DNA of 59,268 nucleotides from an uncultured bacterium (GTDB lineage: Bacteria; Electryoneota; Tariuqbacteria; Tariuqbacterales; Tariuqbacteraceae): positions 3,935 through 63,202 of the forward strand of contig CAYQZD010000001.1 of NCBI GenBank assembly GCA_964421875.1, in the 5' to 3' direction. The position numbers and the translations under genes were made by a program. Positions 2,590-59,120 of the stretch are shown here, piece after piece. The notes below the pieces were generated by a model, which did no database searches, was not told where the DNA came from, and saw only the letters and a program-made list of their open reading frames with translations. Positions within the stretch are counted from its first letter, which is position 1. The number at the start of each line of letters is the position of its first letter.

Positions 2590-2745
2590 TTCATTCTGAC
2601 GAAGTCAGAATCCTTCTTTGCAAGGCGGATTCTCAATCCGCCAATCTGCGTTAAGTCAGGTCTTTAGCGAAGCGGAGACCTTACTTCATTTAGACTGTCA
2701 GGTCACACCCGCCTGTGGGCGTCCAAGACCTGACAGAACAGGCAA
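2590..2745. repeat. Stack of dispersed palindromes (ATTCTGAC/GTCAGAAT, GGCGGATT/AATCCGCC, AAGTCAGGTCTTTAGCGAAGCGGAGACC family, TGTCAGGTC/GACCTGACA)
   Basis: Four adjacent hairpins; the third recurs at 48986-49019 and 57946-57973. Confidence 0.75.
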
Positions 2746-2774
2746 GATTTCACAATTTCTCGAATTTTCAATTT

Positions 2775-2854
2775 TAATCCCCCCTGTCCCCCTTTAAAAA
2801 AGGGGGGAAAACCGTTTCACTGTTTCACAGTTTCACCGTTTAACTATTTAACTA
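2775..2854. repeat. Composite repeat: CCCCC..AAGGGGG hairpin plus five 8-mer units (CCGTTTCA-like)
   Basis: Inverted counterpart at 5670-5739; related hairpins at 14739-14814 and 57869-57900. Confidence 0.8.
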
Positions 2855-2861
2855 TCACTAA

Positions 2862-5687
2862 ATGTCCGAAGCTGAGAATATATTTATCAAGGGCGCGCGA
2901 GAACACAATCTCAAGAATGTAGATTTGACCCTTCCCCGCAACAAGATGGTGGTTATAACCGGACTTTCCGGTTCGGGTAAATCTTCACTGGCTTTCGACA
3001 CCATCTACGCTGAGGGCCAGCGGCGCTATGTGGAATCGCTGTCAGCTTACGCCCGGCAGTTTTTATCGCTGATGGAAAAACCCGATGTGGACTACATCGA
3101 AGGACTCTCCCCGGCGATTTCCATCGAGCAGAAGACTTCCTCTCGAAATCCCCGCTCCACTGTGGGCACTGTGACCGAAATTTACGATTACCTCCGCCTG
3201 CTCTACGCCCGGATTGGCATCCCTTACTGCTATAAATGCGGCCGGCGGATATCGCGGCAGACGGTGCAGCAGATGGCTGACACAGCGCTCAAACTGCCGG
3301 AGGGGAGCCGCATCCAGGTGTTAGCTCCGGTGGTGCGGGGTCGGAAGGGGGAATACCGGGACATCTTCAAGAAAGCGAGGCGCGACGGTTTCGTTCGGGT
3401 TAGGGTCGATGGTGAAGTGAAAAGCCTGGACGAAGAAATCGTTCTGGAGAAGTATAAAAAGCACAACATCGAACTGGTGGTGGACCGGCTGGTGGTTGGA
3501 CCCGGCATCAGCGGCAGACTCACTGAATCGCTGGAAACCTCGGTTAATCTTGCCAATGGGCTGGCGCTGGTTGAGGTTATCGAAGGTGAAGAGCTACTGT
3601 TCAGCGAGCAATTCTCCTGCCCCGACTGCGGGATAAGCTACGAGGAGCTTCAGCCCCGGATGTTTTCCTTCAACAGCCCTTTCGGCGCCTGCCCCGGATG
3701 CGACGGGCTGGGGATAAAAATGGAAATCGACCCGGAGATAATGGTTCCCAATCCTGATTTGTCGATTTGGGAGGGTGCGATTCTGTCTCTGGGCGAGGGG
3801 CGGGAAGGGTGGTTTTTCAAAATGATTGAGACCGTGGCGGACCACTACGGTTTTTCGCTTCACACACCCTGGCGGGAACTATCACAAACACACCGCCGGA
3901 AAGTCCTATACGGCTCGGGCAAAGAAGAGATGAACTTCAAATGGGCGCATACCAACGGCAAGGCGGTGGGAGAATTCCAGCGCACCTGGGAGGGGCTGAT
4001 ACCCAACCTGCAACGCCGCTACCGCCAGACCGGCTCCGGAGGCATCAGGGAGTGGATTGAGGGATTTATGGGCGCAGTCCCCTGCGACCAATGCGGCGGC
4101 GAGCGTTTGCGGCCGGAGAGTTTAGCGGTCAGAATAGCGGGGCTCTCCATCGCCAAACTCACCTGCCAATCGGTGAAGGATGCGCTGACCTTTATAGATG
4201 AGCTTAAGCTGAACGAGAAGGAGACCAGTATCGCCCGGCAGGTTTTGAAGGAACTTCGCGCCCGACTGGGATTCCTGCGGAATGTGGGATTGGATTACCT
4301 GACGCTGGACCGCTCCGCTGGCAGTCTTTCCGGGGGGGAAGCTCAGCGCATCCGCCTCGCCACCCAAATCGGCTCGCAATTGGTCGGCGTGCTCTATATT
4401 CTCGATGAACCCTCCATCGGACTGCACCTGCGGGACAACAAGCGCCTCATCGGAACCCTGCTCAGGCTCCGGGATTTGGGCAACACTGTAATAATAGTCG
4501 AGCACGACCGGGAGACCATCGAATCCGCCGACCAGGTGGTGGATTTGGGTCCCGGCGCGGGGATAAACGGGGGTAAGCTGGTGGCGCAGGGAAGTCCGGA
4601 CGACATCAAACAATCCGATTCCCTCACCGGAAAATTCCTCTCCGGTGAAGAAATCATCGACATCCCCGCCAAACGGCGTTCGGGAAACGGGAAAGTCCTT
4701 AAGTTATCCGAAGCAAGGGGCAACAACTTGAAGAAGATGACGGCTGAGTTTCCCCTGGGCAAATTTATCGTCATAACCGGCGTGTCCGGCTCCGGCAAGA
4801 GCACATTGGTGAACGAGACACTCTATCCCGCGCTGGCGCAGAGGGTTTACCGCTCCCGGCTGAAACCCCTGCCGCACAAGTGGCTATACGGCACGGAGTA
4901 TTTGGATAAGGTCATCGCCATCGACCAGAGCCCCATCGGCCGCACTCCCCGCTCCAATCCCGCTACCTACACCGGGCTCTTCGCTCCCATCCGGGAGCTT
5001 TTCAGCCAGCTTCCCGAATCCAAGGCGAGGGGCTACAAACCGGGGCGTTTCAGTTTCAATGTCAAGGGTGGACGCTGCGAAGCCTGCAGGGGCGACGGTA
5101 TCATTAAAATTGAAATGCACTTCCTCCCCGATGTTTATGTCCCCTGCGAAATCTGCAAAGGGAAACGCTACAACCGGGAAACGCTTGAAGTTCTCTATAA
5201 AGGACGCTCCATCGCCGAAGCGCTGGATATGACCGTCGCCGAAGCCCTGGATTTCTTCCGCAATATCCCCACGGTAGAACGAAAGCTGAAGACGCTGGAC
5301 GAGGTGGGGTTGGGATATATCAAATTGGGCCAGCAGGCTACCACGCTGTCCGGCGGGGAGGCTCAGCGAGTCAAGCTGGCGTCGGAACTGTCCAAGGTCG
5401 CCACCGGGCGCACCCTGTACATTCTCGACGAGCCGACCACCGGTCTGCATTTCGCCGACATCAGGATGCTGCTGCAAGTCCTGAACAGCCTGGTTGATAG
5501 AGGGAACACGGTGATTGTCATTGAGCACAATATGGATGTCATCAAGACCGCTGACCACATTATCGACCTGGGTCCGGAAGGGGGCGATGCGGGCGGAACC
5601 ATCGTGACTCAGGGAACGCCGGAAAAAGTCGCCCGCTCCCGGAAGTCTTACACGGGGCGGTTTTTGAAGGGTGAATTGGTGAAATAG
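2862..5687 (+). CDS. uvrA: Excinuclease ABC subunit A
   Basis: [10 protein letters not shown] start, two Walker A motifs ([16 protein letters not shown]), LSGGEAQR signatures, zinc-finger Cys pairs, 941 aa. Confidence 0.99.
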
Positions 5688-5739
5688 TGAAACGGCGAAA
5701 TCGGTTTCCCCCTTTTCTAAAGGGGGGCAGGGGGGATTA
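5670..5739. repeat. Inverted copy of the 2775-2841 composite repeat, overlapping the uvrA stop codon
   Basis: GTGAATTG GTGAAATA GTGAAACG GCGAAATC followed by a CCCCCTTTTCTAAAGGGGG hairpin and a second G-run. Confidence 0.8.
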
Positions 5740-5745
5740 TGATAG

Positions 5746-5966
5746 TGTTTGGTGTTTGGTGTTCGGTGGTTAGTGACAGGATATTCACTGGCTATTATGG
5801 CTATTAAGGCTATTTGTAGGGCGGATTATTAAAACCCGCCGGTGATGTCGCAGAGTGCTGGGACTCTGCGACACGAAAAGGAAAAGATATCGGAACAAGA
5901 TACCAACCTGAATAAAGCCGCGTCAACGAAGAACGAGTAACCAGTAAGCAGCAACGAGCAACGAGA
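5746..5966. repeat. Mosaic of 7-mer and 9-mer tandem repeats, a GTAG-hairpin and a GTCGCAGAGT..ACTCTGCGAC palindrome
   Basis: GTGTTTG x3, GGCTATTA x3, GTAGGGCGG..CCCGCC (5816-5840), palindrome 5847-5872, AACGAGC-like x6. Confidence 0.75.
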
Positions 5967-6864: not shown

Positions 6865-6979
6865 TGTTATTGCGAGGCGCAAAGCGCCGAAGCAGTCTAT
6901 GAAGCGTAATCGTCATTCCGGTTGCGAAGCAAGCCAGAATCTTTCTTTCCCGGAAGGATTCCGGCTTCGCGGGAATGAC
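6865..6979. repeat. GTCATTCC/GGAATGAC-family palindromic repeats
   Basis: 6907-6946 matches 53915-53954 at 37/40 nt; ends GATTCCGGCTTCGCGGGAATGAC. Confidence 0.8.
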
Positions 6980-7063
6980 CAATGCGCTTATGACTTCAGA
7001 AAGCTATAGTCTTACGACAGCGAAAATAAACTACACATCATTTCAAAAATCAGGAGGAGCAAA

Positions 7064-8015: not shown

Positions 8016-10181
8016 ATGAGGGATAAATATCGGACCTCATTTGCCGCTGTGGTTCTGATACTGCTCACATCAATCCCGGCGTTGAGCCAGTCCTGGAATG
8101 TGGAGCTGGTGAGCAGGTTGTACAATTTCTGGGACTACGCCTGGTCGTCGGATATACAAGGTAACACGGCTTATGTCGCTGCGGGCTGTTCCGGCCTCAG
8201 GATCGTGGACATATCCAATCCGGGGAATCCGGTGGAAATCGGTTCCTGCGACACTCCGGGCAGCGCGGTTTCCGTGAAGGTCTCCGGCGATTATGCTTAT
8301 GTGGCTGATTCGCACCGGGGGCTCAGGATAATAGATGTTTCCAATCCGGCGCAGCCGGTGGAAATCGGATTTTATGAAAACGGAAACAACGCTTGCGGAT
8401 TGGCTGTCACAGATGAATATGTTTATATGATAGACATGAATCGGGGAAGTGTGAGAATCATAGATGTATCCTATCCGGGGCAGCCCTTCGAGGCCGGTTT
8501 TTTCGAACAGGGACATTATTTCAGAAACGTGGAAGTGGACGACAGCCTGCTTTATATCGCCGACTCTGATTCGGGAATGAGGATTGTCGATGTGTCCAAC
8601 CCTGCTTCGCCCGTGCAGATAGGATTCTGCGCCTGTCAAGGGTATGCCTTCGATATAGCTATAAACAGCAATTATGCCTATGTTGTGGATATGGCTTGTA
8701 TCTGCATCATTGACATTTCCAATCCCGCCGCCCCGCTGATGGCAGGATGGAGTTTTATATCCAATTCGCCGATGGGGACATTCCTGAGCGTGGGCGTTTC
8801 CGGAAACTGCGCCTTCGTTTCCGATGGCAACCACGGATTGATTTCCGTCGATGTGTCGATTCCCGCGAATCCAACGGTTCTGGCGCGGTTCGACACCCGT
8901 AATTACGCCGATGAAGTGACGGTGGTCGGTAATACCGCGTATATTTCCGAATTTTGCGGCATTCTCGAAATCGTCGATTTGAGTAATCCCGCTAATCCCG
9001 CCTTGACGGGTTTCATCGACAATTACGGACATATGTCCAGTGTGGATTATACCGGCGATTACGCCTGTATCACGGATTGCGGCAGCGGACTTCGGGTGGT
9101 GGATATCTTCAATTTAAATCATCCGGTCGAAGCGGGATTGTGGGAATCGGAGTTAACACTGCGTGATGTCGCCTTCGACGGGAGTATTGCGGCGCTGGCT
9201 TGCGACGACTCAGGGATTTGCTTCATAGATGTATCTAATCCTGCGAATCCGCAATACGTCGGCAGTTTCAACCTCGGAGGGGGATGTCATTATTCGGTCC
9301 GGATGCAGGGCGGAATCGTTTATATTGCAGACAGCCACCTGCGGACTATAGACTATTCCAATCCCGCGCAGCCGGTTGAAATTGGGAGTGTGGAATTACC
9401 TCATTATGGGGATTATTTAGCGGTGTCGGGCAACCGCGCTTATGTAACAGGTTATCACGACATTTACGCGGTCGATATTTCTGTCCCCGCCAATCCGGTC
9501 CTATTGGGAACGATGGAAACCGATTATTTGCTAACGGGGATTACCATCGGGGCGGAATATATTTATGTTTCGTATATCTATAGCGTCTATCCCGGCGCTC
9601 ACCGAGGATTTTTCGCAGTGGATATATCGAATCCGGCGAATATGAGTCAGGCGGGAATACTCCATATTGAAGATATTCACAGCATTAAAGCAGAAGGCGA
9701 TTTTCTGCTGGTGGGATGCGGCGAACCGGGACTCAGAATATTCAACGCCGCTGACCCCTCGAATTTTGTCGAAGTCGGGTATTATCAAGCGTCGGGCAGC
9801 GCCGGAGGAGCCGCGGTTTCCGGGGATTATATATTTCTCACCGAAGGGGTCTGCTTTGAAATCCTGGATTGGAGCGCTGTGGGAGTGGAGATTAGTAACC
9901 ATACCGCCCTTCCGGCGGAATTCAGGCTATCATCCCCTTATCCCAATCCCTGCAACGCCGCCGCTGAAGTCAGGTTTGAACTGCCGAAACCGGCAGAAGT
10001 CTCGCTGAAGCTCTACGACATCGCCGGGCGGTTGATAACGACTCCGCTGGAATCGAAATACTACGATGCCGGGATATATTCAGCGCATCTCGATTTGGAC
10101 GATTATGCGTCGGGGATCTATTTCCTTCGCCTTGAAGCCGGTGAATATAATCAGGCTATTAAGCTGGTATTATTGAAATAA
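8016..10181 (+). CDS. Secreted LVIVD-repeat beta-propeller protein with Por/T9SS type A C-terminal domain
   Basis: ATG 8016 after GGAGG, signal peptide, about 13 repeats of GLRIxDVSNPxxP, tail PYPNPCN...SGIYFLRL...KLVLLK. Confidence 0.9.
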   Translation: MRDKYRTSFAAVVLILLTSIPALSQSWNVELVSRLYNFWDYAWSSDIQGNTAYVAAGCSGLRIVDISNPGNPVEIGSCDTPGSAVSVKVSGDYAYVADSHRGLRIIDVSNPAQPVEIGFYENGNNACGLAVTDEYVYMIDMNRGSVRIIDVSYPGQPFEAGFFEQGHYFRNVEVDDSLLYIADSDSGMRIVDVSNPASPVQIGFCACQGYAFDIAINSNYAYVVDMACICIIDISNPAAPLMAGWSFISNSPMGTFLSVGVSGNCAFVSDGNHGLISVDVSIPANPTVLARFDTRNYADEVTVVGNTAYISEFCGILEIVDLSNPANPALTGFIDNYGHMSSVDYTGDYACITDCGSGLRVVDIFNLNHPVEAGLWESELTLRDVAFDGSIAALACDDSGICFIDVSNPANPQYVGSFNLGGGCHYSVRMQGGIVYIADSHLRTIDYSNPAQPVEIGSVELPHYGDYLAVSGNRAYVTGYHDIYAVDISVPANPVLLGTMETDYLLTGITIGAEYIYVSYIYSVYPGAHRGFFAVDISNPANMSQAGILHIEDIHSIKAEGDFLLVGCGEPGLRIFNAADPSNFVEVGYYQASGSAGGAAVSGDYIFLTEGVCFEILDWSAVGVEISNHTALPAEFRLSSPYPNPCNAAAEVRFELPKPAEVSLKLYDIAGRLITTPLESKYYDAGIYSAHLDLDDYASGIYFLRLEAGEYNQAIKLVLLK

Positions 10182-10363
10182 GTCTGCAAGTCGGCAGGTC
10201 GGCAAGTCAACAAGTCGAAGAAAATGTGTACAGGTGAGCAGGTGGACATGTGTACAAGCCCACGCTTGGAGAGCCCCGCTCTGTTACTACAAAATAGAAT
10301 CGTATCGTATGATGGGTTCTTAACTAACCAATTTACAAGTCATTCCGGCGCAGCCAGAATGAC
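10180..10363. repeat. 8-mer tandem repeats (AAGTCGGC-like x5, GTGTACAG-like x4) and a GTCATTCCGGCGCAGCCAGAATGAC hairpin
   Basis: TACAAGTCATTCCGGCGCAGCC (10334-10355) is identical at 51758-51779. Confidence 0.7.
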
Positions 10364-14689: not shown

Positions 14690-14881
14690 GGTTCCTCGCT
14701 GTTTTGTATGGGTAGATAGACATTTGCATATTGTAAGAAATCCCCCCTGCCCCCCTTATTCTAAGGAGGGAATCAGAAAGTCCCCCTTTGGAAAAGGGGG
14801 ATATAGGGGGATTTGTTTTACAGACAAGCAAGCAGATTTCCTTGATAGAATCAGTTTACCCACACGATTCAGCGAAGAACC
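14690..14881. mobile_element. 192-bp non-autonomous MITE-like element with imperfect TIRs and 8-bp target-site duplication
   Basis: ATTCTAAA at 14682-14689 and 14882-14889; TIRs GGTTCCTCGCTGTTTTGTATGGGTAGAT / reverse complement GGTTCTTCGCTGAATCGTGTGGGTAAAC (21/28). Confidence 0.8.
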
Positions 14882-14951
14882 ATTCTAAATAAACTATGGA
14901 TAAAGAAATCCGTATATATTTTTATGAAAACAAATAACTTATAAAAACCGG

Positions 14952-15152
14952 ATGGCTATTATGAAAGGAATAAATTTTGTCGTAGATGAAACCGGTGAGC
15001 AAACTGCGGTTCTCATCGATTTGAAAGAACATCGGGAGCTGCTGGAGGACTTTTTTGACTCTTTGATTGCTAAAATGCGCGCGGAAGAACCCAGAATGGA
15101 GCTTGAGGCTGTGGAGAAAAGACTGAAATCCTTAGGAAAATTAAGCGCCTGA
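14952..15152 (+). CDS. Putative type II antitoxin
   Basis: 66 aa, INFVVDETGEQTAVLIDL motif and acidic centre; directly upstream of a RelE-type toxin. Confidence 0.75.
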   Translation: MAIMKGINFVVDETGEQTAVLIDLKEHRELLEDFFDSLIAKMRAEEPRMELEAVEKRLKSLGKLSA

Positions 15153-15414
15153 ATACAAGTTAGTGTTTGCAAAATCAGCGGTTAAGGAACTCGAGGCGCT
15201 AAACACCAGCCAGATAGATGTAATATTTCCAAGGATTAAAACTCTCCGCACAAATCCCAGACCTCGAGGCTGTAGGAAACTCCGTGATAGAAGCAATCTC
15301 TGGCGTATCCGCACTGGCGACTATCGGGTAATATATGCTATCGATGATAAAGTCAAACTTATCGATGTAATTGCAGTACGGCATCGAAAAGATGTTTATC
15401 GAAGAAAATTCTAA
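15145..15414 (+). CDS. relE: RelE/ParE (StbE-like) toxin; expected start position 15145 reads GCG, first canonical start is GTG 15163
   Basis: PEYKLVFAKSAVKELEAL...NPRPRGCRKL..WRIRTGDYRVIYAIDD...VRHRKDVYR. Confidence 0.85.
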   Translation, partial: APEYKLVFAKSAVKELEALNTSQIDVIFPRIKTLRTNPRPRGCRKLRDRSNLWRIRTGDYRVIYAIDDKVKLIDVIAVRHRKDVYRRKF

Positions 15415-17735: not shown

Positions 17736-18025
17736 GTAGGGGCGGTTCGCGAACCATCCTTATAAATTGCCCTATATTGATATCTTTACGCCCCAGAGTC
17801 CCCGCACTCTGTCTAAGGATATGTCATGCTGAGCGAAGCGGAGCATCTGCATTTTCGTATGTCATTTATAAACAAGAGATTCTTCACTAAGTTCAGAATG
17901 ACATAATACGAAAACTGGTGCTCTCGGACGGACTGTCCGCATACTGCGGCAAATAAACTTACACCGCGCAAGACAAAAAAGCAGCATATAACACATATGC
18001 AAATATGTAAACATATACATATCAT
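17736..18025. repeat. Mosaic of GTAG-REP, CAGAGTCCCCGCACTCTG, GTCATGCTGAGCG..CAGAATGAC and 8-mer tandem repeats
   Basis: Each unit has relatives elsewhere in the window. Confidence 0.75.
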
Positions 18026-21071: not shown

Positions 21072-21099
21072 GTAGGAGCGGTTCGCGAACCGCCCCTAC
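21072..21099. repeat. GTAG-type REP palindrome
   Basis: GTAGGAGCGGTTCGCGAACCGCCCCTAC, one mismatch to 48850-48877. Confidence 0.85.
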
Positions 21100-23730: not shown

Positions 23731-23750
23731 TTATATCAACAACTTTATGT

Positions 23751-23918
23751 GCTGCAGACTCCCCGCAGTCTGCAGTATAATTTGTCATTTATGTCGCAGA
23801 GTGCGGGGACTCTGCGACACGAAGAACGTCCTATGAGATGTCACTCCCGCGAAAGCGAGAGTCCAGTATCTAATATGAATATAAGAAGATGGATTCCGGC
23901 TTTCGCTTCGGAATGACA
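23751..23918. repeat. Two GCAGAGT..ACTCTGC-family palindromes plus a GTCACTCCCGCG..GGAATGAC element
   Basis: Hairpins 23751-23776, 23792-23820, 23839-23918. Confidence 0.8.
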
Positions 23919-25125: not shown

Positions 25126-25560
25126 ATGAAAAGAGATAAGGAAATTGTGAAAAGAACAATGAAAATGGTTAAGAGCGATGAAACATCTCCGGAAATAACC
25201 CTAAGAAAAGAATTATGGAAAAAAGGCTTCAGATATAGAAAAAATGTTAAAAATATTATTGGAAAGCCGGATATAGCTAATAGAAAGTTGAAGATAGCTC
25301 TTTTTATAGATGGAGATTTTTGGCATGGAAACCAATATAAAACAAGAGGATTTAAAACCATTGAAGAACAGTTTTCCGATGTGTCAAACAAAGAATACTG
25401 GATAAAGAAAATACAAAGAAATATTGATAGAGATAATCTGGTAAATAACACGTTGAAAATGAAAGGATGGACAGTCATAAGAGTGTGGGAAAGCGAAATA
25501 AAAAATGACTCGATTGGTTGCGCAGACAGGATTATAGAATTAATAAATAAAATCACTTAG
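25126..25560 (+). CDS. vsr: Very-short-patch repair endonuclease
   Basis: TSPEITLRKELW, GKPDI, FIDGDFWHG, YWIKKIQRNIDRD, GWTVIRVWE; AT-rich DNA. Confidence 0.93.
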   Translation: MKRDKEIVKRTMKMVKSDETSPEITLRKELWKKGFRYRKNVKNIIGKPDIANRKLKIALFIDGDFWHGNQYKTRGFKTIEEQFSDVSNKEYWIKKIQRNIDRDNLVNNTLKMKGWTVIRVWESEIKNDSIGCADRIIELINKIT

Positions 25561-25567
25561 GTTGTTT

Positions 25568-26587
25568 ATGCGTAAAATCAATTACATTGACTTGTTTTGT
25601 GGGATAGGAGGATTTAGAATAGCAATGGAGCAAGCGGCGGAAGAATTGCTCTTAGACGCTAATTGCGTTTTTTCCTGCGATATTGATAAAGAAGCTCAAA
25701 GAGCTTATTATTATAACTTTAAAGAAATCCCACTCGGTGATATTAAAAATCATGATGAGAATAAGATTCCCGAACATGATATATTATTTGCCGGTTTTCC
25801 TTGTCAACCCTTTAGTATTATTGGAAAGAGAAATGGATTCGAGGACACAAGAGGAACATTATTCTTCGATATTGCTCGAATTTTAGAAGCGAAACAGCCA
25901 AACGCTTTCATCTTAGAGAATGTTAAACTACTGGTTGGACATAACAAAGGAAGAACTTTCAAGAGGATATTAGAAACACTAGATGATTTAGGATACTATA
26001 TATCTTACAAAGTGTTAAACGCATTGAATTTTGGATTACCACAGAAGCGAGAAAGAGTGATTATAATTGGTTCAAAAAGAAAAATAGATTATGTTTGGCC
26101 AAATAGAAAATATACTATGGCACCACTTGATGAAATTCTAGAAAAGAATATACCTCCTGAATATTATGTGTCTGATTATATAAAAAATAAAAGGATGGCT
26201 ATAGGCATTAAGACTGAACATAAATATACTATATGGCATGAAAACAAACAAGGGCATATCAGCGCTTATCCTTATTCCTGCGCGCTTAGAGCTGGGGCTT
26301 CATATAATTACTTATTGGTGAATGGAGAGCGAAGACTGACTCCTCGAGAAATGCTAAGACTTCAAGGTTTTCCTGACACATTTAAAATTGTCTGTAATTA
26401 CTCACAAACACGCAAACAAGCTGGAAACGCAGTGCCTGTTCCAATGGTGAAAGCAGCGCTTAAGCAACTGTTATTTGCATTGGATGAAGAAATCCAAATA
26501 GATAATAAATATGAGTTAAGGCACTATTATGAAAGCTCCCAAATTAAGAACCGCTCAGAAAGTAAAGCCACCTTTCAAGCAAAATAA
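25568..26587 (+). CDS. DNA (cytosine-5)-methyltransferase of a type II RM system
   Basis: DLFCGIGG, AGFPCQPFS, LENV, PQKRER, RRLTPRE..RLQGFP, KQAGNAV. Confidence 0.97.
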   Translation: MRKINYIDLFCGIGGFRIAMEQAAEELLLDANCVFSCDIDKEAQRAYYYNFKEIPLGDIKNHDENKIPEHDILFAGFPCQPFSIIGKRNGFEDTRGTLFFDIARILEAKQPNAFILENVKLLVGHNKGRTFKRILETLDDLGYYISYKVLNALNFGLPQKRERVIIIGSKRKIDYVWPNRKYTMAPLDEILEKNIPPEYYVSDYIKNKRMAIGIKTEHKYTIWHENKQGHISAYPYSCALRAGASYNYLLVNGERRLTPREMLRLQGFPDTFKIVCNYSQTRKQAGNAVPVPMVKAALKQLLFALDEEIQIDNKYELRHYYESSQIKNRSESKATFQAK

Positions 26588-42100: not shown

Positions 42101-42212
42101 TTTGATGTCAAGTTATTCACAAAAAATACTATAATTATTCCTGATTTTAATGAATGCTGTCTGCATTAGCTTCGAATTTTATTGTTAACCAACGTCTTGC
42201 ATCCGAACAAAA

Positions 42213-43766
42213 ATGATGAACAAAAGGTCATACGTATTCGAAGTCAACGGATTTGAAAAGGCGGAAAAGGTCTTCTTGGTCGCCTTTTATTTAGTGGATT
42301 TAGTCTATTCCTGGCACACTCTAAACTACCGCCCTCGAGGTGAGAGCTTCCTTTTTCCCTTTATAGTACCCCTTGTACTATATATGTTTAAAAGCAGACT
42401 ATTCTTCTTATCGCTATTGATAGCCTTCCAAATCGCCGTCGCTTTTCTATTTTTAGGAGCGCCCGGTGACGTGGTCAAATACACTGCTACGGCGTTCCTG
42501 GTAATGATAGCTTTGAGCAAATCGGAAACCGCATTCTACATTTCCGTCGCGGCAATCTACACCTTTTTCCTGCCCAAAATCCAGAATATGGATATAGTCC
42601 ACGTCCTGCTGGTGTTCCTTTTCTTCAGTTTAATTGTCACCTTGGATAAAACAAAGTCTACAGGTTACAATAGAACAAGTGTAGTTAATAAACTAATGCT
42701 GGCGCTCTTTGTCTGGACAAATATCTCCATCCTCTGGTGTCCCAGCGCCACCAATGCTTTTTTCAGATACGCCGACAACATCAGTTTCTTCCTGGTTTAT
42801 TGGGTCACATTGATTCTGGTCGATGATGAACGTAAAGTGGTAAATACGCTCTGGATATTCGCAATAGGGGGTGTGGCGATGACTTTTATCGGAGCTATGT
42901 CGATATTAACGCCTTTCTTTCCTAACGTGGACTATATGGCGCTTAAAAATCACGTCTCATCTTTGTTAACTTTCTCTATATTCGCTCAACTGGCGCTGTA
43001 CTATACAAGGTCGATGAAGCTCCCCTCGATATTGGTGACATTCATCATTCTATCGACAATTCTCTGTATGTTTTCACTTAGCTCTAAAGGTGGAATTTTT
43101 GCCATAATTGTCTCGCTTCTATTATTTCTCAAGCTGAAAAATCCGAACAAAACTAAAAGGAATAACAGACTATTAACCACCGCTACCGGAATTATTACCC
43201 TGTTCCTCTTCGCGCAAATCCTCTTGGTTCCTCTGGTCTATGTAAAACTCAGCGATAAATTCCATGGGGAAAACTTCCCCATCGTTCTCGCCACGTTACC
43301 CTTCAGGTTGGAGCAATGGCGCTATGCGGAAAAGATGATTAATACCGATGGACACCCGCTCACCGGAGTTGGGATGAGCGGATTCGCTTACCTGCACTAT
43401 GACGCCTGGGAACATCAATTCACTCCGCGCCCGTTTATGATATCCACCCATTGTATTTATGTGCAAGTATATGTAGACTATGGAATCATCGGATTGATTG
43501 TTTTCATATTCCTGACAATAGCTTTCTTCTTAATCTTGAGTAAGTCCATCAAGCGGATGACGAACGAATCGATGCGTATGTACGCTTTAACTATGTACGC
43601 AGGAGCCCTCGCCTTCCTCATTCACGGACTTGTTGACTGGTCGTTGAGCGACGAACGATTCTGGTTCTTCATCGGTCTCGGAGTAGCCATTGTATTCATT
43701 GATAAAAACCAGCGCCTTAAAAAACAACCTGAGCAAATCAGCGAGCCCACTGAACCAATACTGTAA
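42213..43766 (+). CDS. O-antigen ligase/Wzy_C-family membrane protein, copy 1
   Basis: Many TMs; SKGG, RLEQW, HPLTGVGMSGF, THCIYVQVYVDYGIIGL, LIHGLVD. Confidence 0.85.
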   Translation: MMNKRSYVFEVNGFEKAEKVFLVAFYLVDLVYSWHTLNYRPRGESFLFPFIVPLVLYMFKSRLFFLSLLIAFQIAVAFLFLGAPGDVVKYTATAFLVMIALSKSETAFYISVAAIYTFFLPKIQNMDIVHVLLVFLFFSLIVTLDKTKSTGYNRTSVVNKLMLALFVWTNISILWCPSATNAFFRYADNISFFLVYWVTLILVDDERKVVNTLWIFAIGGVAMTFIGAMSILTPFFPNVDYMALKNHVSSLLTFSIFAQLALYYTRSMKLPSILVTFIILSTILCMFSLSSKGGIFAIIVSLLLFLKLKNPNKTKRNNRLLTTATGIITLFLFAQILLVPLVYVKLSDKFHGENFPIVLATLPFRLEQWRYAEKMINTDGHPLTGVGMSGFAYLHYDAWEHQFTPRPFMISTHCIYVQVYVDYGIIGLIVFIFLTIAFFLILSKSIKRMTNESMRMYALTMYAGALAFLIHGLVDWSLSDERFWFFIGLGVAIVFIDKNQRLKKQPEQISEPTEPIL

Positions 43767-44175: not shown

Positions 44176-44464
44176 TACAGTTACCGAAATCATCATCGAT
44201 AACACCACAATAATTCCCGTTATCAGCCCACTATCATTAGCTCTGGACACGTGTGAATCAGGCTTTTAAATAGGGTTGTTTCCGCGGATGATTTACAAAT
44301 TAACCTAAGTTTGATAAGCTTGGATTTTACCTACTCCAGAAAATGTCTCTGTGCGACAATCCCGGACTATTAAAAACACTCACCCAATAACTATCGGATG
44401 GATGCAGTCTGCATTACCAGCGGAGATAAATATTTTAAGCCAGTGTATCGCATCTAATACATAA

Positions 44465-46018
44465 ATGATGAATAAAAGATCAAACGTATTCGAAGTCAAC
44501 GGATTTGAAAAGGCGGAAAAGGCTTTCCTGGTCGCCTTCTATCTCCTGGATTTTCTCTATTCCTGGCAAATCCTCACACAAAATCCTTACGCTGAGAATT
44601 TTCTCTTCCCCTTCCTGGTGCCACTCGCGTTATTCATTCTGAAGAGCAGAATGTTCTTTATCTCACTTCTGATATCCTTCCAAATCTCCGCAGCTTTTCT
44701 ATTCCTGGGCGCTCCAGTCAGCATAGTCAAATACAGCGCTGCATTTTTTCTGGCTATGTTAGCTTTTAGCAAGCCGGAAAACGCATTCCATCTCGCTATT
44801 GCTTCCATCTTCTTCTTCTTCATCCCCAGAATTCATAATATGGATGTGATTCACGTCCTCTTGGTGTTCATCTCCTTCAGCTTGATCGTCACCCTAAACA
44901 AAACAAAGCTGAATGGTTACAATAGAATCAGCATAGTTAACAAACTCATTCTGGCGCTCTTTGTATGGACGAATATCTCCATCCTCTGGTGCCCCAGCGC
45001 CACCAATGCGTTTTTCAGATACCTCGACAACATCAGCTACTTCCTGGTCTATTGGATAACCTTGATTCTGGTCGATGATGAAAGTAAAGTGGTAAATACA
45101 CTCTGGATATTCGCCCTGGGGGGAGTGGCGATGACTTTTATCGGAGCTGTGTCGATATTAACTCCTCTCTCTCTAAATGTAGACTATTTGGCGCTTAAAA
45201 ATCCCGTATCATCGTTGTTGACTTTCTCTATATTCGCTCAACTAGCGCTGTACTATACAAGAACGATGAAACTCCCCTCGATATTGGTAAAAATTGTCAT
45301 TTTATCCACAATTCTCTATATGTTTTCACTTGGTTCAAAAGGCGGTATTTTGGCCATAATTATATCGCTGATAACATTCTTCACGCTGAAAAATCCCAAT
45401 AAAACTAAAAGGAACAGCATATTATTAACCGCTGGAACCTGGATTATCGCCCTGTTCCTCTTTGCGCAGATTCTATTAGTTCCTCTAGTCTATGTAAAAC
45501 TCAGCGATAAACTCTATGGAAAAAACTTCCCCACTTTCCTTGCCACCTTACCCTTCAGGTTGGAGCAATGGCGCTATGCGGAGAAGATGATTGATACCGA
45601 TGGACACTTTCTTACTGGTGTTGGGATGAGCGGATTCGCCTACCTGCATTATGACGCCTGGGAACATAAATTCGTTCCACGCCCCTTCATGATATCCACC
45701 CATTGTATGTATGTGCAAATATATGTGGACTATGGAATCGTGGGATTAGCTATTTTTGTATTCCTGACAATAGCTTTCTTCTTCATCTTAAGTAAGTCTA
45801 TCAAGCGGATGACAAATGAATCGATGCGGATATACGCTTTGACTATGTACGTGGGGGCTCTCGCCTTTCTCATACACGGACTGGTCGACTGGTCACTGAG
45901 CGATGAAAGGTTCTGGTTCTACGTAGGTCTGGGGATGGCTCTTCTGTTCATTGACAGATATCAGCGCCATCATAAAAAGTCCCAGCAAGTCAGCGAGCCC
46001 GTCGAACCAGCCCAATAA
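44465..46018 (+). CDS. O-antigen ligase/Wzy_C-family membrane protein, copy 2
   Basis: Same 517-aa length and colinear with copy 1, roughly three-quarters identical by eye. Confidence 0.85.
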   Translation: MMNKRSNVFEVNGFEKAEKAFLVAFYLLDFLYSWQILTQNPYAENFLFPFLVPLALFILKSRMFFISLLISFQISAAFLFLGAPVSIVKYSAAFFLAMLAFSKPENAFHLAIASIFFFFIPRIHNMDVIHVLLVFISFSLIVTLNKTKLNGYNRISIVNKLILALFVWTNISILWCPSATNAFFRYLDNISYFLVYWITLILVDDESKVVNTLWIFALGGVAMTFIGAVSILTPLSLNVDYLALKNPVSSLLTFSIFAQLALYYTRTMKLPSILVKIVILSTILYMFSLGSKGGILAIIISLITFFTLKNPNKTKRNSILLTAGTWIIALFLFAQILLVPLVYVKLSDKLYGKNFPTFLATLPFRLEQWRYAEKMIDTDGHFLTGVGMSGFAYLHYDAWEHKFVPRPFMISTHCMYVQIYVDYGIVGLAIFVFLTIAFFFILSKSIKRMTNESMRIYALTMYVGALAFLIHGLVDWSLSDERFWFYVGLGMALLFIDRYQRHHKKSQQVSEPVEPAQ

Positions 46019-48751: not shown

Positions 48752-49039
48752 GTAGGCGGGGGGTTTATCCCCCCGCATAATTTGTCGGGGGATAAATTCC
48801 CGACCTGCAATTTTTTATCTTAAAAATAGGTTTTGGAGATTAGGGTTTAGTAGGGGCGGTTCGCGAACCGCCCCTACCGGCAACCGTTAATCAGGTATCA
48901 CCGTGTCGCAGAGTCCCCGTACTCTGCGACATCAACGGTGGCTCTGAATGACCCACCCAACACAGCTGTTTCAGCGTATTGCGCTAAGTCAGGTCTTTAG
49001 CGAAACGGAGACCTGACTTTAATCCGCCTCAAGCGGATT
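48752..49039. repeat. Repeat mosaic between hypF and hypC
   Basis: Perfect 28-bp palindrome GTAGGGGCGGTTCGCGAACCGCCCCTAC (48850-48877), GTCGCAGAGT family (48905-48930), AAGTCAGGTC family (48986-49019), further hairpins. Confidence 0.85.
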
Positions 49040-51367: not shown

Positions 51368-51631
51368 TTATTCCTCCACATCCACGCTTTCCAGCAGTAT
51401 CTCCTGAGCGTGAGGGTCGTCCATATCGTCGGATACATCAACCTCCAGCAGCGCCCCTTCGGCGATGGATCCGGAGCAGTCCCGCTCGAAATGCTCCCGG
51501 AAATGTTCTGCCGATATGTGTGAAAGCGCCCCTAATCTCACTTTTACCAACACCACCCGGGATACCTTCTGCTCCCGAGCAATGTATTCCACCTTATTTA
51601 TAAGATTGGATATCAACGAACGTTCATGCAT
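51368..51631 (-). CDS. hypA: Short HypA nickel chaperone lacking the zinc-finger domain
   Basis: MHE N-terminus, VKVRLGALS, AEGALLEV, EILLESVDVE; no CxxC. Confidence 0.88.
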   Translation of the reverse strand: MHERSLISNLINKVEYIAREQKVSRVVLVKVRLGALSHISAEHFREHFERDCSGSIAEGALLEVDVSDDMDDPHAQEILLESVDVEE

Positions 51632-51688: not shown

Positions 51689-52007
51689 TTTTCATAGTGC
51701 GACAGGGTCTCAGCGCCCTGTTGCATGACCGTAGGGTGGGTTCGTAACCCACCAATATACAAGTCATTCCGGCGCAGCCGGAATCCCTCTTCGTAGGGGC
51801 GAATGGCTGTTCGCCCCTACCGGCTGATGTGAAGTTGATAAAAACTTTCAAAAATCTATGTTCTTATATATTATTGATATAAACCGAATCTAATTCGGTT
51901 AATCCGTTTAATTCGTTGTGAATATAATGTTATAATAAACAAATACATACTGAAATCCAACTTCATAAATCTAAAGCATCGTAGGGGCGGATCCCCGTAT
52001 CCGCCCT
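51689..52007. repeat. Repeat mosaic between the protease gene and hypA
   Basis: Three GTAG hairpins (51731, 51793, 51981), GTCATTCCGGCGCAGCCGGAATC (51763), 9-mer TAATTCGGT-like x3. Confidence 0.8.
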
Positions 52008-52523: not shown

Positions 52524-53855
52524 CTAAACATGCTCTATATTGAGCTTCAGGAAATGACAGGAACAGGAAATGCAGGGGTCGTAATTCCGCACCACCTGCT
52601 CGCAATGCCAGGTCAGCTTATCCTTGTCCATATCGAGGTTGCGCTGAGCAAAATCGGAGAGGTCACGCTCTATCGTAGGCTGATTCTGCGAAGTCGGAGG
52701 AACCAGCTTCGCGTCCCGAATCAAACCGTAATCGCCCACAGTATAGCGGTGATAGAGTATCCCCCGCGGAGCCTCGGTACAGCCGTAAGCTTTGGCGGAA
52801 TGATGCGCCACATCGACCCTCGACTGCGGGGGCGGCTCGTATTCCTCGACTATCCGCAAACCCTCTTCACAAGCGAAAACCAACTCCACCGCCCGAGCGA
52901 TGATACTCTTGAAGGAATTGCTGCATACCGGGAGGAAATTGACCGCTTTCGCCTCGGCTTGCGCCACCGGTGTCAGTTTTTCGAAATTCAAATTGAACCG
53001 CGCCAGAGGTCCTACAAAGTAAGCACCCCGCTCCTTTATCCGGGAATGCAGCGATGTGGAGTGTTTCACATGCTCCTCTTCGAAATGCTCCTCATATTCC
53101 GATACCGGAATATCCAAACCCCTATTTGAAACCAGCCGACCCTCGTTTATACCGTATTCCTCCTCGTGCCGAAGAGCCACAAACACGTAATCGTAGTCGA
53201 GCTCAGGGAAAGGAAGCGTTGCCACGAAACGCACCGTCTTCACCGACGCATCAATCGCCCACTTCAGCTTATCGACTAAAGGCTGAAGCTCCTTCTTACT
53301 GGGAGCGCGGTAAAAGCCGCCCACGCAGGCGTTGACCGGATGTATCTCCCGACCCCCAATCACCCTCACTATCTCGTTGCCGATTTTCTTCAGCTCCAGC
53401 GCCATCTTCACCAGGTCGCCGTGGTCCTTAGCCATCTGTATAGCGTCCTGGTAACCCAGGAAATCGGGCGCATGCAGCATAAACACGTGCAGTGCGTGGC
53501 TCTCAATCCATTCCCCGCAGTAAAAAAGCCTCCGCAGCGCGCGAATCTGAGGGTGAACCTTGACCTCGAAAGCGCTCTCGAAAGCGTGAATCGAACTCAT
53601 CTGGTAGGCGATAGGGCAGATGCCGCAGATGCGTGCGGTGATGTCAGGCGCCTCCTGATAACGCCGGCCCCGAAGGAAACCCTCGAAAAAGCGCGGAGGC
53701 TCGAATATCTTCAGCTTAGCCTCCATCACCTTGCCATTCTTTACCTTGATATTGAAGCCCCCCTCCCCCTCGACACGGGCTAAATAATCTACCTTAATCG
53801 TCCTGGCGCCCTGTGAATTCGTACTTTCTTTATCCGACTTTTTTTTAGACTGCAT
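52524..53855 (-). CDS. hydA: Group 3b [NiFe]-hydrogenase large (alpha) subunit
   Basis: ARVEGEG, L1 RICGIC, EAPRG, PPTSQN, L2 DPCISC..H with cleavable C-terminal extension. Confidence 0.95.
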
Positions 53856-53914
53856 ATCGATATGCCTGATATTCTACAATTTAAAGTTATGTATCACTTT
53901 ACTGGGTTGAAGTA

Positions 53915-53981
53915 TAATCGTCATTCTGGCTGCGAAGCAAGCCAGAATCCTTCTGTGTAGGGGCGGTTCGTGAACCGCCCT
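53915..53981. repeat. GTCATTC-family hairpin fused to a GTAG-REP
   Basis: Matches 6907-6946; GTAGGGGCGGTTCGTGAACCGCCC at 53957. Confidence 0.8.
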
Positions 53982-54003
53982 CACCGGCAGCACGAAACCC
54001 GCC

Positions 54004-54783
54004 TTACCGCTCGTAAGCCTCGCTCTCCTTGCGGAAAGGTTCTGCATAAGCGTTATAGGTGCGGTAAAAACGGATAACATCCTCGGCTTTATAACCCAGC
54101 GCCACAATCCGTTCGCTCATCGAAATCGTATTCGGCGTCTCTTTAGGCCCGAAACAACCATAACAAGCGCGGTTGAAGGAAGGACACAAAGCGCCGCAGC
54201 CCGCCTGAGTAACCGGACCTAAACAAGGGAGCCCCTGCGAAACCAGCACGCAGATGTTGCCCCGCTGCTTGCACTCGATGCAGAGGCTGTAATTGGGGAT
54301 GTTGGGACGCCGGTTGTTAAGATAGGCGTTGATAACCTCCAAGAGCTGTCCCTTGCTGATGGGGCAGCCCCTCAGTTCGAAATCGACGAAAACATGGTCG
54401 GCGATAGGCGTGGATTTACTTAAAGTTTCGATATACTCCGGATGGGCGTAAACAATGTTGACGAAATCCTTGACGTCCTTGTAATTTCGCAGCGATTGTA
54501 TCCCGCCCGCAGTAGCGCAGGCGCCGATAGTGATGAGGAACTTCGAAACCTTACGCACCTTCTGTATCCTAATGATGTCGTGAGGCGTGGTGATTGAGCC
54601 TTCCACCAGCGAAATATCATAGGGACCCCGCGACACCGCCCGCGAAGCCTCTGGAAAATTGGCGATTTCGACTTCACCCGCAACCGCGAGCAATTCGTCC
54701 TCGCAGTCCAGAAGGCTAAGCTGACAGCCGTCGCAGGAGGCGAATTTCCAAACTGCTAATTTCGGCTTTTTCTTATGAGCCAT
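54004..54783 (-). CDS. hydD: Group 3b hydrogenase small (delta) subunit
   Basis: [41 protein letters not shown]. Confidence 0.93.
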
Positions 54784-54784
54784 C

Positions 54785-55668: not shown

Positions 55669-56040
55669 GTAGGTCGGAACCTAGTTCCGACATTATGTAA
55701 GAAGAAAGTTGTCACTCCTGAGAAACAGTCTATCCGACAATTACTAAAATGAGCGTCATTCCGGCTAGTCCGGAATCTGAAAGCCCATATTTCTTAAAAT
55801 TATCGTGCTGCAGAGTCCCCGCACTCTGCAACATTTACCTTGAAAATAGATTTACTGTTTCCTCGCGAGCCATTATTTTCATCCTGCGTTGTGGATGGTC
55901 GCGAAAAGATACCATCTATGATGGTTTATCCTGAAAATAGAATCATTTCCTCCCCACAGGATGGTAGTGCGGTTCGCGAACCGCCCTTACAAATTGCCTC
56001 ACATAACGACTTTCATGTTTTGGGATGCGAGGTCGCGAAG
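55669..56040. repeat. Repeat mosaic inside the hydrogenase operon
   Basis: GTAG hairpins (55669, 55964), GTCATTCCGG (55756), GCAGAGTCCCCGCACTCTGC (55807-55832), about 90-bp element shared with 58174-58260. Confidence 0.8.
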
Positions 56041-56517: not shown

Positions 56518-56603
56518 TTAATCACTCCTTCGAAATATATAGCTATTATATAGTGTCATATTGAGGCAAACCACTGACTTCGCCCTCCAGCGAAGCCGGT
56601 TCG

Positions 56604-57761: not shown

Positions 57762-57868
57762 AACAGCAGACCTCTTCTCTTTAGTGGTTCTCGTTCCCCA
57801 CACTCCTGCGCGGGAATGCAGATAAGAACGCCATTATTACCTCCCATTCGGAAAAAACGTCCAATATA

Positions 57869-58260
57869 CCCCCTTTTCTAAAGGGGGCAGGGGGGATTAT
57901 AATCATTTGTAAGTCGGCTTATTTAAAAACCGACATACCGTCACATCAAGTCTTTAGCAAAGCGGAGACCTGACATCAATACTCCGAAATTAGCTTCGAC
58001 GACTCCGTGCAATACTACAATATTAATACGAAATATCTTGGTATTATGCTAATATCCCTAAACATTTACCTTGAAAATAAGTCTGCCAGTCAACAAGTTG
58101 CAGGTCGCAAGAATCCTATCAGTGCTGCCGGGTCCCCGCACCCGGCAGCATTCTGTGCAATCTGTGGTTTATCTTAACCTTAAAAATAACTTTGCCGCTT
58201 CCTTGCGAGGCATTATTTTCATGCTTCGTGGCGCGAGGTAGCGAAAGAGACCCTCTATAA
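57869..58260. repeat. Repeat mosaic between cysC and hydB
   Basis: CCCCCTTTTCTAAAGGGGG hairpin with following G-run, nearly identical to 5708-5740; AAGTC family 57946-57973; perfect-stem TGCTGCCGGGT-CCCCGC-ACCCGGCAGCA 58123-58150. Confidence 0.8.
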
Positions 58261-58264
58261 GGAT

Positions 58265-58885
58265 TTATTTTCCCCCTAACAATCCCATTTGTCTTAGATA
58301 TGACAAGATTTCGCTCACCAATTCTCTGGGCTGCTTGTCCGCAGTCTTTACCACCAGTTCAGGTTGATTAGGAAATTCGTAGGGGTCGTCCACACCGGTG
58401 AATCCCCTGATTTCACCACGACGTGCCTTTTTATACAATCCCTTGGGATCACGCTGCTCGCAGATATCCACCGGCGTATCGATAAATACCTCAATGAAAG
58501 GAAGGCCCGATTCCTGATGAAGTTTACGCGCCAAATCCCGGTCCCGGCGGTAAGGGGAAATAAAGCTGGTCATAGTGATTACCCCGGCGTCAGCGAAAAG
58601 CTTGGCAACCTCCCCGATACGGCGAATGTTCTCCATCCTGTCCGCCTCGGAAAATCCCAAATTCTTGTTCAAACCATGCCTGATATTGTCACCGTCAAGC
58701 ACATAAGCCAGGTAGCCCAGCTTAATCAACTCATGCTCCAGCGTGAATGCAGTGGTGCTTTTCCCCGAAGATGGAAGTCCCGTAAACCAGATAGTGCAAC
58801 CCTTTTGCTTAAGCAGACTTTCCCGCAAGCTCCGCTCCACGTGACTCTCATGCCACACTACATTGGTGGCTTTCACCTCTGTCAT
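58265..58885 (-). CDS. cysC: Adenylyl-sulfate (APS) kinase
   Basis: IWFTGLPSSGKST, LDGDNIRHGL, ENIRRIGEVA, RDPKGLY, FTGVDDPYE; ATG 58885 after AGGAG. Confidence 0.96.
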   Translation of the reverse strand: MTEVKATNVVWHESHVERSLRESLLKQKGCTIWFTGLPSSGKSTTAFTLEHELIKLGYLAYVLDGDNIRHGLNKNLGFSEADRMENIRRIGEVAKLFADAGVITMTSFISPYRRDRDLARKLHQESGLPFIEVFIDTPVDICEQRDPKGLYKKARRGEIRGFTGVDDPYEFPNQPELVVKTADKQPRELVSEILSYLRQMGLLGGK

Positions 58886-58938
58886 ATTATGCTCCTGATT
58901 GGTGAACAAGAATAATTGATATGCTACAATTGTAGTAT

Positions 58939-58967
58939 AATATAACCCCAAATAACCATAAAGTCAA
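58939..58967 (-). promoter_or_regulatory. Putative cysC promoter
   Basis: TTGACT-17-TATATT; perfect palindrome CTACAATTGTAG at 58924-58935 just downstream. Confidence 0.55.
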
Positions 58968-59067
58968 GTCCGGTTTGATAATTATTTCATTTTTTTCACC
59001 TCCGTCGTCCGTTGATAGAATGTCATTTCCCCCGAAATAGTCCGTCAAATAATAGAAAAATAACCAT

Positions 59068-59120
59068 TGTCATTGCGAGCGAAGCGAAGCAATCTTAATG
59101 ATCAATATAATCCCGTGACA
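59068..59120. repeat. TGTCATTGCGAGCGAAGCGAAGCAATCT repeat
   Basis: Related to 6865-6897. Confidence 0.65.

Follow-up and report, generated by a model that had tools for sequence, protein, structure and literature searches.

GTAG-headed repetitive extragenic palindromes (REPs), the REPIN doublets they form and the REP-associated tyrosine transposase (RAYT) were reportedly described by Bertels and Rainey in 2011, and the mosaics of short repeats found in Neisseria go by the name of NIMEs. Both GTAG- and CGTC-tagged REP superfamilies have been defined, together with heterodimers and with dimers whose tags point outward, and Neisseria mosaics interleave CGTC-1/dRS3 units with other repeat families; according to that study, no transposase is known for the CGTC REPs (Di Nocera 2013, PMC3733652). 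SsnA, a small GIY-YIG protein, cleaves single-stranded DNA beside the NTS hairpin, and the ssn gene, which has thousands of homologues, is typically flanked by such hairpins (Chenal 2025, PMC11893778). For the intrastrand triplex motifs BoxC and PIT, no associated mobility gene is reported, and the text nowhere mentions DUF559 (Holder 2015, PMC4666352). Here, we analyzed the stacks of hairpin repeats and short tandem arrays that occupy gaps between genes in a 59,268-nucleotide stretch of DNA (the window; contig CAYQZD010000001.1, here C1, positions 3935 to 63202) from an uncultured bacterium of the phylum Electryoneota (assembly GCA_964421875.1). The stacks belong to a known kind of phenomenon, the mosaics of the bacterial interspersed mosaic element (BIME) and NIME types, REPINs and Ssn/NTS, and extend beyond what is in print through a link between DUF559 genes and triplex-type repeats, a link between four-helix-bundle genes and heptamer arrays, and the coexistence of four systems with three orphan families.

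The stacks are probably accumulated gene-less copies of several independent hairpin-repeat systems. That several systems, each a repeat plus a small gene, share the same gaps was the main inference of an initial annotation of the window, and both the links between repeats and genes and the co-localisation of the families bear it out. The assembly (4.0 Mb, 228 contigs, 50.5% G+C) is ∼94% complete. The genes in the window are ordinary housekeeping and envelope genes, including uvrA, clpX, lon, carAB and several encoding type IX secretion-tail proteins, the last of which assign the organism to the FCB group; a group-3-like NiFe hydrogenase operon and hyp maturation genes are also present. Genes were taken as greedy longest open reading frames (ORFs), and gaps as the intervals separating ORFs of at least 120 amino acids (aa). 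A hairpin entered the catalogue with a stem of 7 or more perfect pairs, or of 9 or more when one mismatch was present; arrays were called by TRF.

All 34 motif positions listed in the initial annotation were confirmed within 1 nt (10 for family A, 8 for B, 9 for C, 4 for D and 3 for E); the strict hairpin catalogue, which is conservative, recovers 23 of them. The A and B consensus sequences have 3 and 5 matches, respectively, with up to 3 mismatches, compared with none in 100 shuffles, and an unguided repeat finder applied to the window recovered all five hairpin families and their inverted relations (8 copies of B, 6 of A, 3 of E and 3 of D, with C appearing as two groups). TRF also called 7- to 9-mer arrays (family F) in the window, at the positions given with the stacks below. 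The commonest 12-mers of the genome are these same repeats, with 70 to 140 copies each. The 5,886 hairpins catalogued genome-wide yield 35 clusters of at least six members, comprising 1,485 hairpins, and 70 to 100% of the copies within each hairpin family lie outside ORFs. By head motif, the genome contains 355 hairpins of the GTAG type (A), 319 of B plus 32 related ones, 458 GTCA-tagged hairpins (C), 103 of D, 79 of E and 74 of an additional family, G, as well as 816 arrays with periods of 7 to 10. The 355 hairpins that combine a GTAG tag with a palindrome form 12 clusters, each with 75 to 91% of its copies outside ORFs. Hairpins and arrays together make up 2,289 modules, 1,964 of them between ORFs of at least 120 aa; array density is higher outside than inside ORFs by factors of 9, 23 and 15 for periods 7, 8 and 9, respectively. 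The original count of at least six unrelated families thus understates the number of clusters, although these collapse into about seven superfamilies plus the arrays.

The compensatory stem changes proposed for family B were reproduced: a stem of 7 or more contiguous pairs encloses the loop C[CT]CCGC in 199 cases, compared with 0 to 2 for each of five permuted control loops, and stem pairs 2, 3, 5, 6, 8 and 9 change on both sides among a few discrete subfamilies (pair 3, for example, is A-T in 106 copies and G-C in 93). A scan with the exact 20-nt B core, covering one genome per species, returned 16 loci in two other assemblies (15 and 1) and no gene lead; unlike the widely shared C, D and E, family B is lineage restricted. 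An Rfam scan of the window at the gathering score identified a single tRNA and no other known RNA family. Intrinsic terminators were considered as an identity for the repeats and rejected: a T-run follows 36 of 783 family hairpins (4.6%) compared with 80 of 525 unique intergenic hairpins (15.2%), and orientation relative to the flanking genes, and hence to transcription, is near 50:50 in 20 of the 22 families with enough copies.

The window itself contains no cognate mobilising gene, as had been stated initially, with all matches to Y1_Tnp, small GIY-YIG, DUF559 and PF05635 lying outside this stretch of C1. Elsewhere in the genome, RAYT, GIY-YIG, DUF559 and four-helix-bundle genes are all present and carry the respective families at their flanks. 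The predicted association of GTAG repeats with a RAYT is borne out on contig C44, where a 181-aa ORF that matches Escherichia coli TnpA-REP (PDB 4ER8) with an E value of 1.2e-38, a true RAYT, is flanked by GTAG hairpins of cluster 5, one upstream and three inverted downstream. No RAYT was found for the remaining 11 GTAG clusters in this 94%-complete assembly. Family A resembles the described GTAG REP/REPIN/RAYT systems in its GTAG head on a palindrome of 20 to 30 nt, its high extragenic copy number, its frequent inverted doublets and its flanked RAYT, but differs from them in that twelve GTAG clusters share one RAYT and that the units occur in mixed stacks with unrelated families. Positions 1 to 18000 of C44 bring together, within 18 kb, three four-helix-bundle cassettes, the sole RAYT and a six-module stack.

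Hairpins of the C type, GTCATTCC, flank both small GIY-YIG genes of the genome (contigs C118 and C80), being located directly upstream and, as inverted copies, directly downstream. In a survey of gene flanks across 30 relatives of the same phylum, the strict C-type head was found upstream of 16, downstream of 15 and on both sides of 13 of the 26 small GIY-YIG genes, against a background of 36 of 329 windows with the head; most of the genes without the strict head carry variant heads, as judged by eye. The NTS pattern fits C cluster 2, with 37 copies in the genome at up to one mismatch and none for the reversed control. These copies are 28-nt hairpins in which only the first base differs, in a bacterium of a phylum unrelated to Neisseria. 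The looser SRM pattern has 148 matches, compared with 21 to 35 in shuffled genomes, and covers 112 of the 137 hairpins of C cluster 2; in the largest C cluster, cluster 0, it fits only 1 of 216 copies. Clusters 0 and 2 both display the traits of CGTC-tagged REPs, namely, a CGTC or TGTC tag, an 8- to 9-bp stem with an A-T and T-A start, a short loop, a short tail and tags-outward dimers (63 of 77 pairs within 60 nt). The link between C-type repeats and GIY-YIG genes is already known, and part of family C appears, by pattern matching, to be a straightforward NTS/SRM member. NTS/SRM repeats are one and the same as the CGTC-tagged REPs and the Neisseria dRS3. The likeness to NTS/SRM-Ssn extends from the NTS fit of cluster 2 to the repeat-gene-repeat layout at both small GIY-YIG genes and the dominance of tags-outward dimers; unlike the described system, this one resides in an FCB-group host and includes a cluster that almost entirely misses the SRM pattern.

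The sole DUF559 gene of the genome, at the end of contig C186, has D modules on both sides, in agreement with the initial annotation. Poly-C/poly-G hairpins within 260 nt were detected upstream of 18, downstream of 19 and on both sides of 17 of the 22 stand-alone DUF559 genes in the surveyed relatives; the background was 3 of 329 windows, and in a cross-control none of the 26 GIY-YIG genes had such hairpins on either side. Family D shares with BoxC/triplex motifs a layout, as read from its letters, in which a loop separates a pyrimidine block from a purine block and a short linker leads on to another purine block; like those motifs, it lies between genes, is free of strand bias and is conserved from genome to genome. 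Unlike in BoxC, its blocks are plain C and G runs rather than the E. coli consensus, and it brackets a DUF559 gene here and at 17 of the 22 loci in the relatives. The expected association of the 7- to 9-mer arrays with four-helix-bundle genes was likewise observed. PF05635, the four-helix-bundle 23S rRNA intervening-sequence protein, has 10 genes in the genome, 6 with arrays on both sides and 9 with arrays on at least one side (3 are one-sided and 1 has none by TRF). Where arrays are two-sided, the units are always within 1 or 2 mismatches of each other's reverse complement. The reverse-complement arrays around 6 of the 10 genes are those of PF05635 cassettes; the arrays in the window are all solitary. 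Literature searches that left most subscription journals outside their scope, so that absence is unproven, found no paper tying DUF559 to such repeats and none tying PF05635 genes to heptamer arrays.

For B, E and G, no partner was found among 67 inverted same-family pairs spaced 150 to 3,000 nt apart, which appear to enclose ordinary genes. Judged by eye from their translations, the candidates considered for these families (a rubredoxin-like ORF, a DsrC-like ORF, an epimerase and a sigma factor) are seemingly host genes and were rejected, and two B-flanked segments of identical length (1,107 nt) proved unrelated.

The genome contains 2,233 gaps of at least 30 nt, of which 912 hold superfamilies A to G, 354 at least two, 128 at least three and 39 at least four. 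Independent uniform placement predicts 39 ± 5.5 gaps with at least three superfamilies, and placement weighted by residual length, that is, by the non-repeat length of each gap, predicts 100 ± 7; for at least four superfamilies, the corresponding values are 3 and 24 ± 4. Thus, the families co-localise well beyond the uniform model and modestly beyond the length-weighted one. Restricting the comparison to tandem and convergent gaps gave 102 gaps with at least three superfamilies, compared with 30 ± 4.7 (uniform) and 80 ± 6.4 (weighted); only 1 of 1,000 length-weighted simulations attains the count of 102. All 21 family pairs co-occur above expectation, with odds ratios of 1.5 to 11. The nominally non-repeat gap length itself rises by ∼40 to 95 nt per added superfamily, up to four, so that the length-weighted model is conservative; this rise most likely reflects decayed copies and module flanks that escaped detection. 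The families thus genuinely co-localise, in large part according to the amount of insertion absorbed by a gap. Within gaps, neighbouring modules are separated by a median of 37 nt, compared with 56 nt for random placement inside the same gap, and 32.6% of neighbours from different superfamilies lie within 20 nt of each other, compared with 23.7% expected. The density of A and F in divergent gaps is about one-third of that in tandem gaps; depletion from divergent gaps is already known for REPs.

The order of modules is partly fixed. Strongly over-represented combinations with fixed partners account for 189 of 571 adjacent pairs, nearly all of them inverted pairs within one superfamily and often of two different subfamilies; the remaining two-thirds of adjacencies show no preferred order, and 178 distinct types of ordered pair were counted. 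Of the tags-outward pairs, 25 of 38 for A, 50 of 57 for B and 63 of 77 for C lie within 60 nt, as do 25 of 26 D pairs in the opposite orientation, D orientation being assigned arbitrarily. These inverted doublets correspond to the REPIN-like doublets and heterodimers already described, and the flanks of the partner genes show the same arrangement. A few mixed composites with fixed spacers also recur; one joins a GTAG hairpin to a C doublet, and another is the block at 2617-2740 of the window, which is found as a block on other contigs at 74 to 90% identity; k-mer extension delineated composites of 100 to 145 nt with ∼30 to 50 occurrences. About one-third of neighbour pairs are thus composites copied as blocks and not independent hits. 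As in E. coli BIMEs and Neisseria mosaics, several short repeat types are packed intergenically, mainly in tandem and convergent gaps, but seven or more superfamilies take part together with arrays, and four of these types each have a different partner gene. The fixed alternation and defined linker motifs of E. coli-type BIMEs are lacking among the 178 pair types, and the majority of pairs between unlike families do not recur.

Two parts of the initial annotation were not supported. The systems were thought to have left their ends inside one another; instead, ∼160 inverted doublets are intact, and the only 7 candidates for pairs split by foreign modules were rejected as unconvincing, each pairing different subfamilies that do not normally form doublets. 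Modules adjoin one another or form unbroken inverted doublets. The arrays had also been regarded as empty ends, yet successive arrays match in inverted orientation in only 6 of 538 cases at the unit level (4 of 538 as exact substrings), a frequency no higher than that of random pairs, and in 4 of the 6 a four-helix-bundle gene match lies between the two arrays. Inverted array pairs were therefore discarded as a general rule, the inverted arrays around uvrA are an oddity, and the window arrays, being solitary, cannot be called emptied four-helix-bundle cassettes.

The stacks were compared with orthologous gaps in relatives, of which G001 belongs to the same family (79% complete), G002 to the same order (77% complete) and the rest to other families. 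The gaps are not identical: the same gene boundaries hold different repeats in three lineages, and the stacks are lineage-specific insertions, including, as originally suggested, between hydrogenase subunit genes. In four relatives that share the hydrogenase operon order, the ATG of the large-subunit gene lies a few bases before the small-subunit stop codon, so that the genes overlap; in the studied genome, the two genes are 148 nt apart (53856-54003), and the overlapping ATG is gone, with a new start in use. The insertion of this stack removed the ancestral large-subunit start, and the start is now 148 nt downstream, giving a different N terminus. Similarly, the junction before hydG measures ∼15 to 60 nt in four relatives, by eye, compared with 434 nt here. 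The uvrA gene of G001 is flanked by only a heptamer array on each side, in gaps of ∼160 and 85 nt compared with 394 and 279 nt here, and that of G002 by arrays of other units together with its own B-type and GTAG hairpins. An array follows directly after the uvrA stop codon in all three genomes compared, with differing units. Copies of D, E, A, B and array families, many of them, are 86 to 100% identical between genomes in which genes are 65 to 73% identical at the DNA level. That the repeats are more alike than the genes suggests either that a recognising protein constrains them or that they spread horizontally.

The uvrA gene is bordered by a stack on each side. Upstream (2590-2853) lie a C half-unit (2593-2611), a GTAG-type hairpin (2624-2642), E (2653-2686), a further hairpin (2698-2746), D (2775-2809) and an 8-mer array (2814-2853). 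Downstream (5664-5966), an array that overlaps the uvrA stop codon (5670-5701) is followed by D (5705-5739), arrays at 5745-5768 and 5789-5814, a GTAG hairpin (5816-5840), B (5846-5873) and an array at 5924-5965. The gene is thereby bracketed by nested inverted repeats (2775-2853 and 5664-5739): the upstream 8-mer array is matched by its reverse complement overlapping the stop codon (32 nt, 81% complementary), outside of which lie inverted D modules (35 nt, 91% complementary). Such matched inverted array pairs are otherwise seen genome-wide only around four-helix-bundle genes.

Smaller groups follow along the window. An intact inverted doublet of C (CGTC-tagged) hairpins, a doublet type that is over-represented genome-wide, occupies 6912-6980, and an 8-mer array (10180-10217) accompanies a decayed GTAG-plus-C composite (10306-10363) at 10180-10363. 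At 14739-14817, D modules form an inverted pair (a poly-C hairpin plus a G tail each); the long gap adjoining this doublet contains a ParE toxin gene and a small upstream antitoxin-like ORF (14939-15414). The stack at 17736-17910 consists of A at 17736, a partial B (17788-17818) and a C-type doublet (17823-17903), the unit 17822-17903 having many copies in G001 at 76 to 94% identity. A lone GTAG palindrome (A) is found at 21072-21099. At 23750-23866, an inverted B doublet (23750-23777 and 23792-23819) is followed by a C hairpin (23839-23866) that matches the published SRM pattern, and at 29772-29920, A (29772-29799) is followed by B (29842-29867) and a B-like hairpin (29887-29920) recognised by eye and absent from the catalogue.

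In the hydrogenase region, the hypC/hypF stack (48753-49019) comprises a GTAG-type doublet (48753-48806), A (48850-48877), B (48904-48931) and E (48986-49019), and every part of it has copies in other genomes of the phylum. The stack between hycI and a HypA-like ORF (51698-52005) comprises a B-like hairpin (51698-51725), a GTAG-plus-C composite (51731-51785), A (51793-51820), a 9-mer array (51891-51917) and a second A (51981-52005). The HypA-like ORF itself (51368-51631, minus strand) encodes 87 aa, aligns to positions 1 to 66 of the 112-position Pfam model and has no cysteine pairs in the translation of its tail; the hycI-hypF interval contains no hypA match in two relatives whose loci span that junction. 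The 148-nt gap between the large-subunit (52524-53855) and small-subunit (54004-54783) genes of the hydrogenase holds C and A modules (53920-53984). The stack between a cNMP-binding gene and hydG (55669-55995) carries a GTAG-type hairpin (55669-55693), C (55756-55777), B (55806-55833) and A (55964-55990). Finally, 57867-58152 contains D (57867-57903), a GTAG-like hairpin (57910-57935), an E-like hairpin (57946-57972), a short array (58081-58110) and B (58121-58152), and the C-type hairpin at 59069-59094 belongs to the subfamily found on the flanks of the C118 GIY-YIG gene. The near-pure C-run tract at 59199-59268 (∼70 nt), which lies within the contig, is a low-complexity oddity or an assembly problem.

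Other features of the window include a Dcm-Vsr module at 25126-27263, in which a third gene, a 244-aa ORF without a Pfam match, comes after those for a Vsr mismatch endonuclease and a C-5 cytosine methyltransferase. Two O-antigen-ligase-like paralogues, adjacent and each 517 aa long, are 73% identical in their 5′ regions (42207-42506 and 44459-44758), and a 52-nt stretch (77% identical) precedes each of them by a few hundred nucleotides (41842 and 43849).

The probable origin of the stacks as orphan copies of independent systems draws together the observed intergenic families, their gene links, their co-localisation, their lineage-specific gain and their lack of terminator features. Each system would comprise tens to hundreds of orphan repeats and a small "master" gene, or a few such genes, with the repeat on either side. 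Family A would be the GTAG REPs of a RAYT, C the CGTC/NTS-type hairpins of Ssn-type GIY-YIG single-strand nucleases, D the poly-C hairpin-plus-G-tail modules (of BoxC/triplex design) of DUF559 and F the 7- to 9-mer arrays of four-helix-bundle genes; three further families (B, E and G) have no partner in the assembly. The partner proteins may spread the repeats in trans via single-stranded hairpin intermediates. Units would arrive as single hairpins, inverted doublets or pre-assembled composites and would persist at sites that tolerate an insertion, behind stop codons and at operon junctions but rarely in divergent promoter gaps, so that modules would pile up side by side; a gap already rich in repeats may also attract further insertions.

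Several observations weigh against this reading. The length-corrected excess of co-localisation is modest (z of about 3.4 to 3.8), and movement was not observed, the relatives being too distant (65 to 73% gene DNA identity) to date insertions or to see target sites. The single RAYT is flanked by only 1 of the 12 GTAG clusters, G002 carries more than 20 D copies but no DUF559 match (in a genome only 77% complete), and B, the most abundant hairpin family, as well as E and G, lack a partner gene. Gene calls by longest ORF are crude, and the 228-contig assembly is often broken at repeats. In addition, published work on Ssn/NTS argues for a host function that modulates transformation rather than for pure selfishness (Chenal 2025, PMC11893778).

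This last argument leads to a different view, in which the repeats are mainly marks that serve the host, either selected barriers to recombination or transformation or mRNA-stabilising ends around operons; by analogy with NTS and SsnA of Neisseria, the hairpins might let a single-strand nuclease trim incoming or recombining DNA. The 37 NTS-fitting copies and the two Ssn-like genes of the genome would suit such a role, as would the cleavage near NTS and the effect on transformation reported in the Neisseria study (PMC11893778), and the identity of modules across genomes (86 to 100%, compared with 65 to 73% for genes) is consistent with constraint by a recognising protein. The orthologous junctions of four relatives work repeat-free, though, the content of the same gap differs freely among genomes, and at least seven unrelated families would each require a function of their own, so we regard host service as an unlikely main explanation.

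Less likely still, the stacks could be mostly larger composites copied as blocks, in the manner of mosaic miniature inverted-repeat transposable elements (MITEs), so that co-localisation would reflect a single multi-hairpin insertion and not a hot spot. The 189 of 571 adjacent pairs in recurrent combinations, the composites of 100 to 145 nt with their ∼30 to 50 occurrences and the presence of the 2617-2740 block on other contigs all fit copying of this sort, which nevertheless leaves two-thirds of adjacent pairs and the 178 distinct ordered pairs unaccounted for; moreover, the recurrent pairs are mainly inverted doublets of one superfamily, and the window stacks vary in order and content. The possibility that slippage at gene ends generates part of the material on the spot, chiefly the 7- to 9-mer arrays, without any insertion, appears very improbable. 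It would explain why 164 of the 271 distinct array units occur only once, why the arrays after the uvrA stop codon have different units in all three genomes and why matched inverted partners are at chance level outside four-helix-bundle genes, but 594 of the 816 arrays use units seen at least three times, one array family is 97 to 100% identical in G001 and G002, and reverse-complement arrays bracket four-helix-bundle genes. Insertion of copies from several independent systems remains the probable origin of the stacks.

Short intergenic repeats are usually studied singly; here, four types pair with different small genes in one 4-Mb genome, and for two of the four pairings (DUF559 and the four-helix-bundle genes), no paper was found. 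The DUF559 pairing bears on the old question of what spreads BoxC/PIT repeats, and the heptamer pairing on the unexplained 7-base arrays of cyanobacteria and Xanthomonas. The hydrogenase genes illustrate that repeats can split overlapping operon genes without destroying them, and repeat identities of 86 to 100% across genera with ∼70% gene identity call for strong protein-imposed constraint or horizontal spread. More tentatively, the genome might host a guild of four or more unrelated small proteins, comprising an HUH transposase, a GIY-YIG single-strand nuclease, a DUF559 nuclease of the Vsr fold and a four-helix-bundle protein, and each of these might maintain its own structured-DNA repeat by the same repeat-gene-repeat logic, with DUF559 as the partner of BoxC/triplex repeats and the four-helix-bundle protein as that of heptamer arrays, and the stacks might mark exposed single-stranded, hairpin-extruding DNA where all of them act. 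If so, partner proteins still to be discovered would be expected for the orphan families B, E and G.

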